Shown: positions 7,886 to 13,572 of the stretch, one piece after another
Numbering within the stretch: the stretch's first letter is position 1
Layout: each line of letters opens with the position of its first letter
Translations under genes and position numbers: made by a program
Origin: a virus
Lineage: Duplodnaviria > Heunggongvirae > Uroviricota > Caudoviricetes
Direction: 5' to 3' (one strand)
Virus record (IMG/VR): IMGVR_UViG_3300045988_007995
Location: 1-20,429 of that record
DNA: 20,429 nt
The notes under the pieces: model-generated
The model's database searches: none
What the model was told of the DNA's origin: nothing
What the model saw: only the letters and a program-made list of their open reading frames with translations

Positions 7886-7925
7886 AGTAGATTATGCATG
7901 ATGAATTTGATGGGTTTTGAATACT

Positions 7926-7951
7926 GCCGCCAACTATGGCGGCTTTATTTT
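7926..7951 (+). terminator. intrinsic terminator between the early operon and terS
   Basis: Hairpin GCCGCC-aactat-GGCGGC (7926-7943) followed by TTTATTTT. Confidence 0.7.
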
Positions 7952-7958
7952 GCATGGT

Positions 7959-7987
7959 ACTATTACCACAACGGTAACTATTACCAC
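7959..7987 (+). repeat. two exact 11-bp direct repeats ACTATTACCAC immediately upstream of the terS start
   Basis: Copies at 7959-7969 and 7977-7987 (18-bp period), ending 8 nt before the predicted terS ATG. Confidence 0.85.
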
Positions 7988-7994
7988 GGTGGTT

Positions 7995-8591
7995 ATGATG
8001 CCTGCTGAACCTAAAACCTATAAACGCAAATCAACGCAATTTAAGCCACTAACAGCAATGCAGGAGGCTTATTGCCAGTCATACATCAAAACGCCTGAAA
8101 ACCAGACTCAGGCAGCGATTAACGCAGGATTCTCCCCAAATACAGCGGCAGTTAAAGCCAGTCTCATGATGCGCGATGAACGCATTCAAAAACGGATTGC
8201 CGAGCTGATGGAAGAGCGCAACAAACGAATGCGCGTCAGTGCTGATTACGTTCTCATGCGCCTGGTGGAGATCGACCAGATGGACGTGATCGACATCCTC
8301 AACGACGATGGGAGCCTTAAGCCAATCCGCGAGTGGCCGAAAATCTGGCGCACTACGCTTAGTGGCTTTGATCTGTCATCGACCATCATGAACATGAACG
8401 AGGATTCGATAGAGACAATCCTCAAAAAAATTAAATGGCCTGACAAGGTGAAGAACCTCGAACTGATTGGTAAGCACGTCGACGTCAACGCATTCAAAGA
8501 ACGCCTGGATGTTAATGTGAATGTGACAATTGCTGATCGCATAGCGGCAGCCAGGAAGAGACTGAAAGAACGTCAGGATGGCAATCAGTGA
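7995..8591 (+). CDS. terS: terminase small subunit (P27-family-like)
   Basis: Located immediately upstream of and overlapping (GTGA) the large terminase gene; start placed at ATG 7995 (MMPAEPKTYKRK...) because the ORF-track extension from 7917 spans the terminator and direct repeats. Confidence 0.65.
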   Translation: MMPAEPKTYKRKSTQFKPLTAMQEAYCQSYIKTPENQTQAAINAGFSPNTAAVKASLMMRDERIQKRIAELMEERNKRMRVSADYVLMRLVEIDQMDVIDILNDDGSLKPIREWPKIWRTTLSGFDLSSTIMNMNEDSIETILKKIKWPDKVKNLELIGKHVDVNAFKERLDVNVNVTIADRIAAARKRLKERQDGNQ

Positions 8592-10063
8592 CAGATACAG
8601 CGTTATCTCCTGAAGAGCAGTTAATCGAGGATATTGCAGGGTTCACTCACGATCCGCTTGGCTATGCCCTCTATGCGTTCCCATGGGGGGAAGAGGGGAC
8701 TGAACTGGCACATGCCACCGGCCCACGTCAGTGGCAGGCTGATGCGTTCCGAGAGATACGTGATCACCTGCAGAATCCAGAGACGCGCTATCAGCCGCTT
8801 ATGCTGGCACGCGCTTCTGGTCACGGTATTGGTAAATCCGCATTCATCTCAATGCTGATCAACTGGGGCATGTCCACTTGCGAGGATTGTAAGGTCGTGG
8901 TGACCGCCAACACCGACAACCAGCTACGAACGAAGACCTGGCCGGAAATTATCAAGTGGTCGAACCTTGCTATCACGAAAGACTGGTTTACCTGTACCGC
9001 TACCGCGATGTACAGCAATGACCTAGGGCACGACAAGCGGTGGCGGGCTGACGCAATACCCTGGTCTGAGCACAACACCGAGGCATTCGCCGGACTACAC
9101 AACGAGCGCAAACGCATCATCGTGGTGTTTGATGAAGCGTCGAACATTGCGGATCTGGTGTGGGAAGTTGCCGAGGGTGCGCTTACGGACGAAGACACTG
9201 AGATTATTTGGGTGGCGTTCGGAAACCCTACACGTAACACCGGGCGTTTTCGCGAATGTTTCCGCAAATATAAACACCGCTGGAAAACTGCGCAGATTGA
9301 CAGCCGGACGGTGGAAGGCACTAACAAACAGCAGTTGCAGAAATGGGTTGATGACTACGGGGAAGACAGCGACTTCGTTAAAATCCGTGTGCGTGGCATA
9401 TTCCCTGATGCATCTGAATTGCAGTTTATCCCTACCGGTCTTACTGACGAGGCAATGAAACGGGTGGTAACCGCTGCGCAGGTTGCACATGCTCCGGTGA
9501 TAATCGGCGTTGACCCGGCATACTCCGGCGTTGATGACGCTGTGATATACCTGCGGCAGGGGCTACACAGTAAGGTGCTGTGGACTGGCAACAAGACTAC
9601 CGACGATCTGATTATGGCGAAGCGTATCGCTGACTTTGAAGACCAGTATCAGGCTGACGCGGTGTTCATCGACTTCGGTTACGGAACCGGTTTGAAGTCA
9701 ATCGGTGACGGCTGGGGTCGTACATGGCAACTTGTTCCGTTCGGTGGCGCGTCTACTGACCCGCAGATGCTCAACAAGCGTGGGGAGATGTTCAATTCAT
9801 GCAAGACATGGCTGAGGCTGGGCGGCATGCTGGATGACCAGGAAACAGCAGACGACCTGTCGGCGGCAGAGTACAAAGTTCGAGTGGACGGTAAAATCGT
9901 TATCGAACCGAAGGAAGATATCAAGGAGCGGCTTGGGCGTTCACCGGGTAAAGGCGATGCGCTACTGCTGACGTTTGCGTTCCCTGTGTCTAAGCGTCTG
10001 CGAATTCCCGGTCAGCAGAACCAGCAAGGCAAGGCCATCACAGATTACGATCCCTATGCTTAA
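8588..10063 (+). CDS. terL: terminase large subunit
   Basis: 491-aa ORF; GTG start overlapping terS stop; ATPase-like segment ...IIVVFDEASNI... (Walker B-like) and overall size and position typical of phage TerL. Confidence 0.85.
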   Translation: MTDTALSPEEQLIEDIAGFTHDPLGYALYAFPWGEEGTELAHATGPRQWQADAFREIRDHLQNPETRYQPLMLARASGHGIGKSAFISMLINWGMSTCEDCKVVVTANTDNQLRTKTWPEIIKWSNLAITKDWFTCTATAMYSNDLGHDKRWRADAIPWSEHNTEAFAGLHNERKRIIVVFDEASNIADLVWEVAEGALTDEDTEIIWVAFGNPTRNTGRFRECFRKYKHRWKTAQIDSRTVEGTNKQQLQKWVDDYGEDSDFVKIRVRGIFPDASELQFIPTGLTDEAMKRVVTAAQVAHAPVIIGVDPAYSGVDDAVIYLRQGLHSKVLWTGNKTTDDLIMAKRIADFEDQYQADAVFIDFGYGTGLKSIGDGWGRTWQLVPFGGASTDPQMLNKRGEMFNSCKTWLRLGGMLDDQETADDLSAAEYKVRVDGKIVIEPKEDIKERLGRSPGKGDALLLTFAFPVSKRLRIPGQQNQQGKAITDYDPYA

Positions 10064-10104
10064 TCCGCTGGTGGGGATAATGTCGTTGATATCCTCTGGT
10101 GAGG

Positions 10105-10133
10105 ATAAAACAAAGCCAGCTCATAGGCTGGCT
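10105..10133 (-). terminator. minus-strand intrinsic terminator downstream of the opposite-strand gene pair
   Basis: Hairpin AGCCAGC-ctatga-GCTGGCT followed on the minus strand by TTGTTTTAT; protects terL from antisense read-through. Confidence 0.5.
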
Positions 10134-10137
10134 GTTT

Positions 10138-10149
10138 GTGACATGTCAC
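10138..10149. repeat. palindrome GTGACATGTCAC (copy 2), 4 nt downstream of the gene A stop codon
   Basis: Exact 12-bp palindrome; flanking context CTGtTTGTGACATGTCACGGtGTTA nearly identical to copy 3. Confidence 0.9.
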
Positions 10150-10153
10150 GGTG

Positions 10154-10486
10154 TTATTTCGGTAGATTGTGTTTGGCATTCGACTCGTCTATCACGTAAC
10201 GCATTGCAGTTCGACCGAGATTACCAGGATCTTCATGCAGACTCACTCGTGCCTTTAGGAGCACACATTCAGCCTTGACATAGTTTGCTGGAATTATTCC
10301 TACCTCGGCATTTTTAAATGCCTCCTTCACCGCCTCACCGTTGTACTGACCGCCAAGCAACTCTGTACATGTCAGGTTGTTATGGATAATTGCAAGGAGA
10401 TCTTTAATCTCTTCACGCAGGTTTACAATCGCCATCGCGGCATTGATAGCTGCGGCATAGCGCTCAGCTGCAGTCTTCTCTTTCAT
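10154..10486 (-). CDS. hypothetical 110-aa protein (opposite-strand insert gene A)
   Basis: Minus-strand ORF; start placed at MKEKTAAERY... (ATG complement at 10484-10486) preceded by AAGGTGA; the only long ORF in this interval on either strand. Confidence 0.55.
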   Translation of the reverse strand: MKEKTAAERYAAAINAAMAIVNLREEIKDLLAIIHNNLTCTELLGGQYNGEAVKEAFKNAEVGIIPANYVKAECVLLKARVSLHEDPGNLGRTAMRYVIDESNAKHNLPK

Positions 10487-10498
10487 GATTTTCACCTT

Positions 10499-10525
10499 AA
10501 AAAAATGCCCGGCGAATCGGCGGGC
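10499..10525 (-). promoter_or_regulatory. conserved hairpin plus T7 tract directly upstream of gene A RBS (copy 1 of duplicated 5' element)
   Basis: Minus strand reads GCCCGCCGATTCGCCGGGCATTTTTTTAAGGTGAAAATCATG; terminator-like stem GCCCG/CGGGC then U-tract, immediately followed by the RBS. Confidence 0.5.
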
Positions 10526-10530
10526 TGATT

Positions 10531-10542
10531 GTGACATGTCAC
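10531..10542. repeat. palindrome GTGACATGTCAC (copy 3), 4 nt downstream of the gene B stop codon
   Basis: Exact 12-bp palindrome in context CTGaTTGTGACATGTCACGGcGTTA. Confidence 0.9.
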
Positions 10543-10546
10543 GGCG

Positions 10547-10969
10547 TTAGAAGGTTATTTTATCGAATGCGGCGTTGATTGCCTTGGCGTCCTGCTCAGC
10601 ACCAACCACATCAAGTAAAGATCTTTTACTAAGCACTTCAGCCAGGCATTGTAACTTCATGTTGTATAAGTTTTCGCGCATGTAATCATCATCACTTTTT
10701 TCTTTGGCGTATACAGCGCGAGAAATATCAAACACATTGCCTTTTTCCATTTCAGTTTTCTGCGCTGAAATCCAGTCATGGCAAGTAACTCCTATTCCAT
10801 GGTCATCGCTAAGCGTTAACCCGGCAAGTCGCTCACCTGGAATTGCTTCACAAAGCATTTCATTTCCTGCAAAAACACCATAAAAAATTGAGTCATCACC
10901 CTGAACAATGCGTACATATTTGCACGGCCATTCATTTAGATATTTAGCTAGCATGTCGGCTGTTTTCAT
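10547..10969 (-). CDS. hypothetical 140-aa protein (opposite-strand insert gene B)
   Basis: Minus-strand ORF; start placed at MKTADMLAKY... (ATG complement at 10967-10969) preceded by TAGGTGA; upstream ORF-track extension crosses the hairpin/T-tract and is rejected. Confidence 0.55.
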   Translation of the reverse strand: MKTADMLAKYLNEWPCKYVRIVQGDDSIFYGVFAGNEMLCEAIPGERLAGLTLSDDHGIGVTCHDWISAQKTEMEKGNVFDISRAVYAKEKSDDDYMRENLYNMKLQCLAEVLSKRSLLDVVGAEQDAKAINAAFDKITF

Positions 10970-10979
10970 GATCTCACCT

Positions 10980-11005
10980 AAAAAAAATGCCCGGCGAATC
11001 GGGCG
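10980..11005 (-). promoter_or_regulatory. conserved hairpin plus T8 tract directly upstream of gene B RBS (copy 2 of duplicated 5' element)
   Basis: Minus strand reads CGCCCGATTCGCCGGGCATTTTTTTTAGGTGAGATCATG; about 40 nt alignable with copy 1. Confidence 0.5.
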
Positions 11006-11045
11006 AACTGGAAGCAATGAGTTATGCCTTCCGTGGCTGTACTGG

Positions 11046-11085
11046 TTTACAGCATGAAGCCATCGCAATGGCGTCATGCTGTAAA
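11046..11085. repeat. 40-bp near-perfect nested palindrome
   Basis: TTTACAGCATGA-aGCCATcgcaATGGCg-TCATGCTGTAAA: 12-bp outer arms with a 5-bp inner dyad. Confidence 0.85.
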
Positions 11086-11124
11086 AAGGGCGGTGATAGT
11101 CCTTCAAGGGAAACCATCACCGCC
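11083..11124 (-). terminator. minus-strand terminator 43 nt downstream of the tRNA
   Basis: 9-bp stem GGCGGTGAT/ATCACCGCC with 18-nt loop, followed on the minus strand by CTTTTT. Confidence 0.5.
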
Positions 11125-11167
11125 AAGCCCCTGGAACTTCTGGCATCACGGTCCTTAGGCGTGATTC

Positions 11168-11244
11168 TGGCGTGGCATGCAGGATTCGAACCTGCGACCA
11201 ACCGCTTAGAAAGCGGTTGCTCTGTCCAGCTGAGCTAATGCCAC
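11168..11244 (-). tRNA. tRNA-Arg (anticodon UCU), phage-encoded
   Basis: 77-nt cloverleaf on the minus strand: acceptor GTGGCAT/ATGCCAC, D-stem GCTC/GAGC, anticodon stem ACCGC/GCGGT with loop TT-TCT-AA, T-stem GCAGG/CCTGC with TTCGAAT loop, discriminator G and encoded CCA. Confidence 0.85.
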
Positions 11245-11671
11245 AACGCTGAGAGCACTTAGCCTGTTAAGGCGCCACACTTTGTCGCGGCTCCATAAAT
11301 GCTCTCATCGTTGTACCCTCGTCTCTTCCGAGGCGTCACACCGAATCGCCGGGATGGTGAATCCCCGTGCGCGGAATAAAACCGCTCGACTTGCACATTC
11401 CGGCTACCTGGTTCGTTTGCCACAGCCAGGGAGGGTGCCCCTTAAACGTATCCAGACCGCTATCGGCGCATGTGCCATACGCCGTACTGCTCAAAATAAA
11501 AGCTCACTCCACCTGTTCAATTTAACGACAAGCCAGTCAGGTTAGTAACCGGAATGAACTCTTTGGTTACCTGAAAGGTAATAATTTGTGCGTTAAATGT
11601 CAACTACCTACGATAAATAAATCATATGTGGTTAAATTGGTAATAATTTAATTGCGTACGGAGTCATTGAT

Positions 11672-11878
11672 ATGTGCATGGGTAGCTCACCATCAGTGCC
11701 TGCAACACCAGAAGTTCAGGCAGCACCACAGGAGCAGGATGCCGCCGTTGTTGATGCCCGCGACGAAGAAACTCGTCGCCGTCGCGCTGCTGCTGGTCGT
11801 AGTTCTACGCTGCTTACCGGTTCTCAGGGCGACACATCAACCGCTAATACCAGCGGTAAAACGCTGCTTGGTCAGTAA
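11672..11878 (+). CDS. small virion-associated protein candidate (T7 gp6.7-like?), 68 aa
   Basis: ATG at 11672 preceded by GGAG; begins MC..., Ser/Pro/Ala-rich; immediately upstream of the portal gene, whose leader shares the motif CGGAGTCATTGA(t/a)ATG. Confidence 0.45.
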   Translation: MCMGSSPSVPATPEVQAAPQEQDAAVVDARDEETRRRRAAAGRSSTLLTGSQGDTSTANTSGKTLLGQ

Positions 11879-11892
11879 CCGGAGTCATTGAA

Positions 11893-13572
11893 ATGGCGGA
11901 AACAACTAAAGAGCGATTGAACAAACAGTTCGCACAACTTGAAAGCGAGCGTCAGTCGTTCGAGCCGCACTGGCGCGAGTTGAGTGATTACATCAACCCG
12001 CGTGGTTCCCGCTTTCTGACTTCTGAGGTCAACCGTAACGATCGACGCAATACACGCATTATTGATTCGACCGGGACTATGGCGGCGCGCACTCTCGCCA
12101 GCGGCATGATGTCAGGCATCACAAGCCCCGCGCGTCCGTGGTTTCGCCTGGCTACGCCAGATCCTGAAATGATGGATTATGGCCCTGTTAAGTTGTGGCT
12201 TGAGGCGGTGCAGAACCGCATGAACGATATGTTCAATAAGTCGAATCTCTATCAGTCGCTGCCGCAGTTATACGGAAGCCTCGGCACATACAGCACTGGT
12301 GCAATGGCAGTGCTGGAGGATGACGAGGACATCATTCGCACAATGCCATTCCCGATAGGCAGTTACTACCTGGCTAACTCACCTCGTGGCAGTGTGGACA
12401 CCTGTTTTCGCAAGTTCTCTATGACTGTTCGTCAGCTTGTTCAGGAGTTCGGGCTAAATAACGTCAGCGAATCCGTAAAAAGCATGTGGGAAAGCGGAAC
12501 CTACGAGAAGTGGATTGAAGTGATGCATTCGGTTTACCCGAACATTGACCGCGATACATCGAAGCTGGATAGCAAGAACAAGCCATTCAAATCGGTTTAT
12601 TACGAGGTTGGTGGCGATAACGACAAGTTGTTGCGTGAGTCCGGATTCGATGAGTTTCCAATTATGGCTCCGCGCTGGGAAGTTAACGGCGAAGATGTTT
12701 ATGGATCATCATGCCCGGGTATGCTGGCGCTTGGACCTGTTAAGGCATTGCAGCTTCTCCAGAAGCGCAAGTCGCAGTTGATTGATAAAGCCACCAATCC
12801 GCCGATGGTTGCTCCGACTTCCCTCAAGAATCAGCGTGCCTCCCTTCTTCCTGGCGACATCACGTATATCGATCAGATTACTGGTCAGGATGGTTTCAGG
12901 CCTGCTTATCTGGTTAACCCCAGTACAGCAGATTTGGTGGCAGACATTCAGGACACCCGTCAAATCATTAACAGCGCCTACTTTGTCGATCTGTTCATGA
13001 TGTTGCAGAACATCAATACCCGCTCGATGCCTGTTGAAGCGGTGATCGAAATGAAAGAAGAAAAACTTCTGATGTTGGGGCCGGTTCTGGAGCGTCTGAA
13101 CGACGAATGTCTTAATCCTCTCATTGACCGCGCTTTCTCGATGATGGTGCGTAAAAACATGCTGCCGCCACCGCCTGACGCGATGGAAGGTATGCCCCTG
13201 AAGGTCGAATACATTTCCGTCATGGCTCAGGCGCAGAAGTCTATCGGCCTGTCCAGTCTGGCGTCTACGGTCAACTTCATTGGTCAACTTGCGCAAGCGA
13301 AACCAGAAGCTCTCGACAAACTCAACGTTGATCAGGCGATCGATGCATTCGCTGATATGTCCGGAGTGTCTCCAACCGTCATTGTTCCGCAGGAACAGGT
13401 TGAGCAGGCTCGCCAGCAACGGGCACAGCAACAACAGCAGCAACAAATGATGGCGATGGGGATGGCGGCGGCACAGGGTGCCAAGACGCTAAGCGAAGCT
13501 AAAACTTCGGATCCGAGTGTTTTGTCAGCTATGGCGAATGCAGTTAGTGGTCAGGGTGGGCAATCACAATGA
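11893..13572 (+). CDS. portal (head-to-tail connector) protein, T7 gp8-like
   Basis: 559-aa ORF following terL; C-terminal Q/A/M-rich tract (QQRAQQQQQQQMMAMGMAAAQGAK) resembles the T7 connector C-terminus as I recall it. Confidence 0.8.
   Translation: MAETTKERLNKQFAQLESERQSFEPHWRELSDYINPRGSRFLTSEVNRNDRRNTRIIDSTGTMAARTLASGMMSGITSPARPWFRLATPDPEMMDYGPVKLWLEAVQNRMNDMFNKSNLYQSLPQLYGSLGTYSTGAMAVLEDDEDIIRTMPFPIGSYYLANSPRGSVDTCFRKFSMTVRQLVQEFGLNNVSESVKSMWESGTYEKWIEVMHSVYPNIDRDTSKLDSKNKPFKSVYYEVGGDNDKLLRESGFDEFPIMAPRWEVNGEDVYGSSCPGMLALGPVKALQLLQKRKSQLIDKATNPPMVAPTSLKNQRASLLPGDITYIDQITGQDGFRPAYLVNPSTADLVADIQDTRQIINSAYFVDLFMMLQNINTRSMPVEAVIEMKEEKLLMLGPVLERLNDECLNPLIDRAFSMMVRKNMLPPPPDAMEGMPLKVEYISVMAQAQKSIGLSSLASTVNFIGQLAQAKPEALDKLNVDQAIDAFADMSGVSPTVIVPQEQVEQARQQRAQQQQQQQMMAMGMAAAQGAKTLSEAKTSDPSVLSAMANAVSGQGGQSQ

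Follow-up and report, generated by a model that had tools for sequence, protein, structure and literature searches.

Why a phage head operon that otherwise runs in one direction should be interrupted, between its terminase and portal genes, by small genes on the opposite strand is the question raised by the IMG/VR virus record IMGVR_UViG_3300045988_007995, of which positions 1 to 20,429 (20,429 nucleotides (nt), hereafter the window) were analysed. The interrupting block consists of two protein-coding genes, here called gene A and gene B, and a transfer RNA (tRNA) gene, and it occupies the slot between the boundary genes listed below.

8588-10063, plus strand: terL, 491 amino acids (aa), bounding the slot on the left (PHROG 2 terminase large subunit, E 8e-53)
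10154-10486, minus strand: gene A, 110 aa, family phrog_27507, ribosome-binding site (RBS) AAGGTGAAAATC before the ATG
10547-10969, minus strand: gene B, 140 aa, family phrog_4846, RBS AGGTGAGATC before the ATG
11168-11244, minus strand: tRNA-Arg(UCU), cloverleaf with encoded CCA (ARAGORN; Rfam tRNA model, 71.1 bits, E 4.9e-14)
11672-11878, plus strand: gp3-like gene, 68 aa, right boundary of the slot
11893-13572, plus strand: portal gene, right boundary of the slot (Pfam PF12236, E 1.6e-187)

Comparison with related phages identified the block as a two-cassette occupant of what reads as an anti-defence hotspot in epsilon15-like head modules. Based on their position, A and B are candidates for small cytoplasmic inhibitors of host anti-phage immunity, with a probability of about 0.5.

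The terL-portal junction was compared across 108 loci, which were collected from GenBank phages, Escherichia coli prophages, 80 IMG/VR contigs, 17 GTDB genomes and contigs carrying gene A homologues. A total of 97 distinct junctions of 185-1,982 nt could be distinguished. Clustering of the minus-strand junction open reading frames (ORFs) revealed at least 13 cargo families, including beside portals that were 99-100% identical. This number of junctions and the varied cargo beside such portals mark the terL-gp3/portal junction, on sequence comparison, as a gene-acquisition hotspot of epsilon15/phiV10-type (Uetakevirus-like) head modules. Among the 79 IMG/VR loci whose portal was 99-100% identical to that of the window, the cargo was distributed as follows; one locus held two families, so the counts total 80.

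PF13876/Acb4 family: 36
201-310-aa membrane/coiled-coil (TM) family: 18
gene B family: 17
gene A family: 2
Tad2-like: 1
other: 2
none: 4

Cargo of more distant relatives included an HNH endonuclease, small membrane proteins and other unknown genes, while no insertion was present in Providencia (L104, with a terL-gp3 gap of 185 nt) or Cloacibacillus. Two loci (L081 and L084) held only the tRNA leader and a 7-codon mini-ORF, and a third (L024) held the same with a short ORF call in addition. The first-pass annotation, which had been made from the letters of the window, had described the block as an insertion between terL and the portal gene. This is borne out by the variable minus-strand cargo of the related phages, by their empty or 185-nt junctions, by the lower GC content of the cargo (0.43-0.47 in 10001-11000 versus 0.53-0.55 on both sides) and by its own terminators.

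The cassettes were arranged in arrays of 0-3, with four gene calls at one Hafnia locus. The following combinations were observed.

Acb4 + B: L004
TM + Acb4: L018
A + 82-aa or 84-aa gene: L007, L010
B-like + Acb4 + 82-aa gene: L119/L120
three to four small gene calls: Hafnia L116/L117

In L119/L120 the gene B relative lay 12 nt upstream of the Acb4 gene. The combination of B and A was found only in the window among the junctions compared; 518 of 5,426 complete E. coli genomes carried part of the block, and none covered 80% or more of it. Every gene A locus examined was situated in this slot, as were all the divergent gene B relatives from Hafnia and Enterobacter.

Part of the cargo in relatives could be identified. 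The commonest cargo (phiV10p03; an epsilon15 ORF; 'Gp49 family protein' in RefSeq) matched PF13876 with E values of 6e-35 and 9e-35, and the profile of this slot family matched the PDB entry 9E4W, 'anti-CBASS 4 (Acb4)', at E 5.9e-5. Two preprints assign PF13876 to the Acb4 cyclic-dinucleotide sponges and PF11195 to Tad2 (10.1101/2024.12.30.630793, 10.1101/2025.07.12.664507). A Tad2-like PF11195 match was obtained for the cargo of L019 (E 1.9e-24) and for that of Klebsiella phage ST512-KPC3phi13.3 (L111; E 4e-26), where it adjoins the same tRNA-Arg. The slot homologues of Acb4 (alignment A4) consisted of invariant N- and C-terminal parts around a hypervariable centre of variable length (approximately residues 40-64), and this variability may reflect diversification of ligand specificity. 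In the L111 protein (L111:1483-2004), residues 77-173 form the Tad2-like domain, and an unknown domain of 76 aa is joined to it on the N-terminal side; by virtue of its fusion to a sponge, this N-terminal domain is another candidate anti-defence module. The 201-310-aa family, whose loci include L015, L018, L023, L045, L049, L066, L102 and L103, has an N-terminal membrane region followed by a long coiled coil, and it takes the place of the left boundary as far as the stop codon of terL. It had no real family match, PADLOC giving only coiled-coil noise, and it is a possible exclusion or abortive-infection protein.

Unrelated cargoes shared the same borders. The window has four minus-strand terminators and two copies of a palindrome in this region.

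10104-10133, minus strand: terminator T1, 3' of gene A; hairpin 10114-10133 followed by a UUUGUUUUAU tail; -13.5 kcal/mol, z -3.4
10138-10149, no strand assigned: 12-bp perfect palindrome GTGACATGTCAC, part of the 3' boundary of the gene A cassette
10499-10525, minus strand: terminator T2, between B and A; hairpin 10507-10525 followed by U7; -10.4 kcal/mol
10531-10542, no strand assigned: palindrome GTGACATGTCAC repeated, at the 3' boundary of the gene B cassette
10980-11004, minus strand: terminator T3, directly 5' of the gene B RBS; hairpin 10989-11004 followed by U8; -10.0 kcal/mol
11089-11124, minus strand: terminator T4, just 3' of the tRNA; 14-bp stem followed by CUUUUU; -22.8 kcal/mol, z -4.4

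The count of four terminator-like hairpins on the minus strand, compared with 1.9 +/- 1.3 in shuffles, was not significant as a raw number, and it is their conservation across distant relatives that makes them credible. A cassette unit consisted of an RBS, an ORF, TAA-CRCCGTGACATGTCAC and a terminator. On the 5' side, the boundary CATTGCTTCCAGTTCGCCCGGTTCGCCGGGCATTTTTTTAAGGTGA...ATG was common to the Acb4, Tad2-like, HNH, A and B cargoes; their shared start reads ...CATTGCTTCCAGTTCGCCCGGTTCGCCGGGCATTTTTTTAAGGTGAnnATC-ATG, and the T3 region represents this conserved 5' boundary. On the 3' side, the Acb4-like and Tad2-like genes, A and B all ended in TAA-C(A/G)CCGTGACATGTCACAAnCAG, followed by a hairpin and then by TTTGTTTTATCC. 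The conserved 3' consensus, TAA-CRCCGTGACATGTCACAAnCAG, includes the palindrome GTGACATGTCAC; this boundary followed the stop codons of these unrelated cargoes and was present in empty slots too. In the empty slots L081, L084 and L024, both boundaries enclosed the 7-codon mini-ORF (MKYEFDGF*). A remnant of the mini-ORF could also be seen 3' of the Acb4 gene in epsilon15 (L003).

Within the window, the boundary repeats form the direct repeats D1 (50 nt, 78% identity) and D3 (29 nt, 97% identity). The terminator 3' of one cassette resembles the terminator 5' of the next (GCCCG..TTCGC..GGGC-T7), and the B/A inter-cassette junction CAGCCCGCCGATTCGCCGGGCATTTTTTTAAGGTGAAAATC reads as a 3' boundary terminator fused, within the hairpin, to a 5' boundary terminator. 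Such a fused terminator is the product expected of unequal recombination between two similar terminators. The slot can be pictured as a leftward unit in which a leader of conserved hairpins, with or without tRNA-Arg(UCU), is followed by 0-3 small cassettes. Unequal recombination inside the 16-30-nt boundaries would then swap, add or delete cargo at exact ORF borders, and such an event would have stacked gene B and gene A in the window.

The anatomy predicted by the first-pass annotation was largely retained. Its two minus-strand genes of 110 and 140 aa appeared as 127 and 186 aa in the mechanical ORF list, and the RBS-preceded starts shortened them to the predicted sizes. A and B were also the sole minus-strand exceptions, all other credible long ORFs of the window lying on the plus strand as expected of a unidirectional operon. 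The tRNA-Arg(UCU) was called by ARAGORN and Rfam alike, and minus-strand terminators, each a hairpin with a U run, bracket every unit of the block. The reported length of 1.8 kb applies to the distance up to the portal start (1.83 kb), whereas the terL stop and the gp3 start are 1,608 nt apart. The statement that the plus strand has no terminator-like signal was matched by the terminator scan, which made no such call; however, the T1 hairpin (10114-10133) is symmetric, its plus-strand tail is weakly T-rich (TGTTTGTG), and in the phiV10 record this hairpin is entered as a plus-strand terminator. T1 is possibly a weak bidirectional terminator.

Substitution analysis indicated that A and B are real genes under purifying selection. 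The ratio of nonsynonymous to synonymous changes (pN/pS) against homologues from other loci was 0.06-0.23 for gene A and 0.00-0.29 for gene B, with up to 51 synonymous differences in these comparisons. RBS sequences (AAGGTGA) were present upstream of both genes and were conserved among relatives. The gene A product was predicted to be soluble with an isoelectric point (pI) of 6.8, and the gene B product to be soluble and acidic with a pI of 4.8, neither having a membrane segment. Full-length homologues, extending down to 41-61% identity, occurred in Escherichia, Salmonella, Citrobacter, Klebsiella, Enterobacter, Pseudocitrobacter and Hafnia, and each protein matched its own PHROG family of unknown function (E 1e-75 to 1e-87). 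Both families were small. Profile searching placed the gene A family in 16 clusters among 5.8e9 proteins, and an exhaustive profile search placed the gene B family in 30 representative clusters among 1.84e9 proteins, none of them annotated. In a set of 50,697 phage records, gene B matched five, all epsilon15-like, and gene A matched none. Gene B is modular: its N-domain, a helical hairpin conserved at the C-terminus and, in some members, a third domain of approximately 60 aa recombine within the family, as is expected of a fast-evolving accessory protein. A helix motif, A-E-x-x-A-x-A-I-N-A-A, is common to the C-terminus of B (10547-10630) and the N-terminus of A (10430-10486), but the likeness is weak (hhalign probability 65%, 21 columns).

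Database comparison did not link A or B to a known function. Pfam gave no match at E <= 0.01, NCBIfam no family, and the PADLOC defence-protein models 0 families at E <= 1, while no relative could be found in the PDB by single sequence or by profile. Pfam, NCBIfam and membrane-segment prediction together revealed no enzymatic, membrane or nucleotide-binding domain in either protein. The possibility that A or B is a divergent Acb4 was ruled out by hhalign against the slot's Acb4 alignment (probability 0.1%), and Pfam matched neither protein to the Tad2 family PF11195 or to any other Pfam sponge family. AlphaFold2 (AF2) models built with the family alignments had predicted local distance difference test (pLDDT) scores of 48 for A and 62 for B, and only the C-terminal helical hairpin of B was confident. 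The gene B model gave no Foldseek match at E <= 0.001 against PDB and BFVD; the gene A model was too poor for this search. When Pfam was applied to longer or fused gene B relatives and to other slot cargo, only Acb4, Tad2-like and HNH families were returned, and no paper mentioning the accessions of these slot proteins was found in the literature searched. The products had been called unrecognised from the outset, and after remote-homology searching and structure prediction on both, with no usable fold and no relative obtained, that description stands.

The expression of the cargo was considered next to the leader and spacer on its upstream side, where the following features are located.

11046-11085, minus strand: conserved hairpin, 18-bp stem, in the leader between the tRNA and the cargo; -24.1 kcal/mol, z -6.8
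11298-11532, plus strand: conserved structured non-coding element between the tRNA and gp3, outside the cargo
11567-11603, no strand assigned: palindrome TTACCTGAAAGGTAA (11567-11581), then TGTCAA (11598-11603), approximately 90 nt upstream of gp3

The sigma-70 consensus scan of 9800-12000 found no promoter. Neither the A nor the B cassette has room for one, as the terminator U run reaches the RBS; that of T2 abuts the gene A RBS at 10493-10498. As no promoter was found inside them, the cassettes are probably expressed by read-through from upstream. TGTCAA lies 17 nt after AAGGTA (11575-11580), exactly so in 98 of the 108 loci; of the ten that deviate, seven retain the arrangement with one base changed. 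The minus-strand reading (11603-11575) is TTGACA-N17-TACCTT, approximately 600 nt upstream of the cargo, which would be the best candidate for a promoter driving the tRNA and the cargo leftward. In the plus-strand reading, the palindrome together with TAATAA is a candidate gp3/portal promoter. The epsilon15 record annotates the palindrome TTACCTGAAAGGTAA as a repressor site (the GenBank record is the only source of the epsilon15 'repressor', 'RNase III' and 'IHF' features), and TTACC-N5-GGTAA, with one mismatch allowed, occurs three times in the window against 0.38 expected, two copies being inside terS (7963-7977 and 7981-7995). The 11567-11581 palindrome could act as a common operator if leftward and rightward promoters overlap here. 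Membrane-family cargo of other loci has its own xTGACx-N17-TAnnAT promoter, in which the same palindrome (TTACCTnAAAGG) forms the spacer. Leftward transcription from TTGACA-N17-TACCTT would pass through the tRNA into the cargo and would be attenuated successively by T4, T3, T2 and T1, and late rightward transcription, if it reads through, would oppose the leftward unit by convergent transcription.

The tRNA is intact, and its sequence ends in GCCA. It was present in 78 of the 79 IMG/VR loci described above and missing from all 15 GTDB relatives examined and from epsilon15. Since these still hold cargo, the tRNA appears to be an optional passenger of the leader that is not required for the cargo. 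Its use as a codon supplement for the cargo was rejected, as there are no AGA codons in A and one in B. AGA codons numbered 0-5 per 1,000 in the structural genes versus 17-23 per 1,000 in three early ORFs, and supplementation of early genes by the tRNA is plausible. The argN/argO tRNA-Arg(UCU) genes of Shiga toxin (Stx) phages have the same anticodon, are found in temperate enterobacterial phages and read the rare codon AGA. Unlike these, the tRNA of the window is inside the head module and not upstream of a toxin gene. The leader hairpins in 11046-11124 were conserved in a Klebsiella phage, SPN1S and epsilon15, and this conservation and their stability suggest that they are more than simple terminators. 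A plus-strand 83-aa ORF (10987-11238, phiV10p04-like) was rejected because it is antisense to the tRNA.

The element at 11298-11532 had 31 consensus pairs with 93.7% of cells paired. Compensatory changes were seen in 11 pairs versus 5.3 +/- 1.4 in shuffles and 1-3 in slid controls, and the element was 70-80% identical even in distant relatives that have no tRNA. Invariant G-U pairs led to its being read as plus strand, and it is probably part of the plus-strand late transcript. Rfam searching over the leader and spacer matched only the tRNA, with no model for the element. The corresponding position in epsilon15 is labelled in its record as an 'RNaseIII mRNA processing' site. An 87-aa ORF at 11282-11545 was rejected as a gene, since the conservation pattern of the region is RNA-structural, with indels. 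A 19-bp inverted repeat (11243-11261 / 11296-11314) extends into the 5' end of the tRNA. Its arms enclose a loop that differs completely among phages, and the SPN1S loop has an apparent degenerate tRNA T-arm. The variable loop and this T-arm-like remnant suggest that the tRNA block was inserted into an older structured element.

The evidence that A and B are immune inhibitors consists of their position in the slot, the adjacency to Acb4, their confinement to the slot and the rapid turnover of the cargo. Lysogenic conversion, defence and anti-defence had been proposed side by side for the two products, and anti-defence is now the leading option of the three because the same slot, with the same boundaries, carries Acb4 and Tad2-like sponges in relatives. 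Several points weigh against this assignment. It would be guilt by position: A and B are dissimilar to Acb4 (hhalign 0.1%) and to the Pfam sponge families, and their AF2 models are poor (pLDDT 48 and 62). For some slot cargo, namely the membrane/coiled-coil family, the HNH endonuclease and other membrane proteins, an anti-defence role is not obvious. A terminator stands directly before each RBS, no consensus promoter was found in 9800-12000, and the candidate -10 (TACCTT) fits the consensus at three of six positions; with two to four terminators in front of the genes, their expression may be too weak, or come too late, to serve early anti-defence. Epsilon15 has an Acb4 gene without the tRNA, so the tRNA is unneeded for cargo expression. 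A bolder version is doubtful. It would combine new immune-antagonist families A and B with an integrase-free, terminator-linked cassette array, whose intrinsic terminators would double as recombination linkers, and with a face-to-face promoter switch at 11567-11603, whose palindromic operator would toggle between early leftward expression (tRNA and cargo) and late rightward expression (portal and head). An unlikely alternative to inhibition of host immunity is that A and/or B are prophage defence or superinfection-exclusion genes that protect the lysogen, in the manner of the defence hotspots of P2/P4. The unit is oriented against the late operon and ends in terminators of its own, an arrangement typical of genes that a repressed prophage expresses; the window belongs to a temperate lambdoid/epsilon15 mosaic; the slot is found in a prophage of approximately 10% of complete E. 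coli genomes (518/5,426) and also holds the membrane/coiled-coil family with its own promoter, a possible exclusion protein. Single soluble proteins of 110-140 aa are, however, rarely complete defence systems, and A and B had no PADLOC match at E <= 1 and no enzymatic, membrane or nucleotide-binding domain, while the recognisable small soluble cargo of the slot is anti-defence.

It is similarly improbable that A and B are accessory genes with roles outside immunity, for example in host physiology, phage regulation or lysogenic conversion, in an insertion-tolerant slot. Such genes would be at home in the gap between two transcription units, a permissive site whose unrelated cargo ranges from an HNH endonuclease to numerous small proteins of unknown kind, and neither A nor B has a functional signature. 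The rapid turnover of cargo beside near-identical portals, the modularity of gene B and the variable central segment of Acb4 are instead features of an arms race, and both families are confined to the slot, one member being directly beside Acb4. That A and B work together as a pair, for instance as a toxin-antitoxin or two-component module, has very little probability. The two small genes are neighbours on one strand with 60 nt between them, and they share the weak motif AExxAxAINAA, but a terminator lies between them and their independent occurrence largely refutes a toxin-antitoxin pair: gene B stands alone in 17 of 79 IMG/VR and 3 of 15 GTDB loci, gene A stands alone or with the 82/84-aa partners, A + B is seen only in the window, and no complete E. 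coli genome covers at least 80% of the block. Least probable of all is that the two are chance ORFs in a non-coding spacer with a tRNA. The mechanical ORF list does contain many spurious ORFs and the AF2 confidence was low, but the substitution pattern (pN/pS 0.06-0.29 with as many as 51 synonymous differences) refutes this reading, and the conserved RBS, the divergent homologues in several genera and the PHROG matches also stand against it.

The slot was further compared with known systems. Morons of lambdoid phages (the Juhala/Hendrix concept) are extra genes between neighbours that differ in base composition, have a terminator and are expressed independently of the late operon. The first-pass annotation read the block as classic moron architecture, and the insertion between genes adjacent in relatives, the base composition, the terminator and the orientation agree with this. 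The block differs in having a terminator and not a promoter before each RBS, and in consisting of two independently shuffled cassettes, interchangeable at one fixed site, in place of a single unit of the kind that occurs as scattered insertions. Integron cassettes are likewise promoter-less single-ORF units in one orientation at a fixed site with imperfect palindromic boundaries, and the proposed upstream promoter with decreasing expression strength would add to this likeness. The boundaries of the slot, however, are intrinsic terminators with a 12-bp palindrome and not attC sites. The ORFs and gene calls listed for the examined junctions included no integrase or recombinase, a result obtained without a dedicated integrase search, and homologous or unequal recombination between co-infecting relatives is the simpler explanation of cassette exchange. 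The sponges Acb4 (PF13876, 9E4W) and Tad2 (PF11195) resemble A and B in occupying the same slot with identical boundaries and in being soluble, acidic proteins of 98-130 aa, but no sequence or profile similarity to A and B is detectable. In N4-like phages, an anti-signalling hotspot has been described in which Acb4, Tad2 and new inhibitors were found by position (bioRxiv 10.64898/2026.06.04.730250). This hotspot and anti-CRISPR loci are, like the slot, compact, with conserved boundary genes and with content that varies among close relatives; the N4-like hotspot also gathers Acb4, Tad2 and unknown small proteins, so that position nominates inhibitors. The N4-like hotspot is bounded by the virion RNA polymerase (vRNAP) and primase genes, whereas the slot is bounded by terL and gp3-portal in a temperate epsilon15-like lineage and differs further in cargo that lies on the strand opposite to the flanks, is individually terminated, has sharp conserved boundaries and is often accompanied by a tRNA. 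No description of the terL-portal slot as an anti-defence locus was found in the literature searched, coverage of which was incomplete.

Phage anti-defence proteins have mostly been found by chance or through guilt by position in hotspots. The slot is sharply bounded and common, occurring in prophages of approximately 10% of complete E. coli genomes, and its cargo includes two validated sponge families, recognised by profile matches, together with roughly ten small families of no known function. It offers a short, testable list of candidate immune antagonists with A and B on top, as well as a clear case of cargo exchange at exact ORF borders.

The window as a whole is a mosaic temperate phage, in which a lambdoid early region is followed by an epsilon15/phiV10-type head module from approximately 7.9 kb. 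The joining of the two could be recognised from a lambda cIII thermoregulator RNA at 2937-2995 (Rfam, 88.5 bits). The remaining feature upstream of the slot is the small terminase gene.

7917-8591, plus strand: terS (PF03592)

The terL gene is annotated as such in the PAS61, phiV10 and epsilon15 records, and phrog_831 was the PHROG match recorded for the gp3/portal right-boundary stretch (11672-13572). Phage TL-2011b, from a patient in an enterohaemorrhagic E. coli (EHEC) outbreak, was 96% identical to the window over the terL-portal block.

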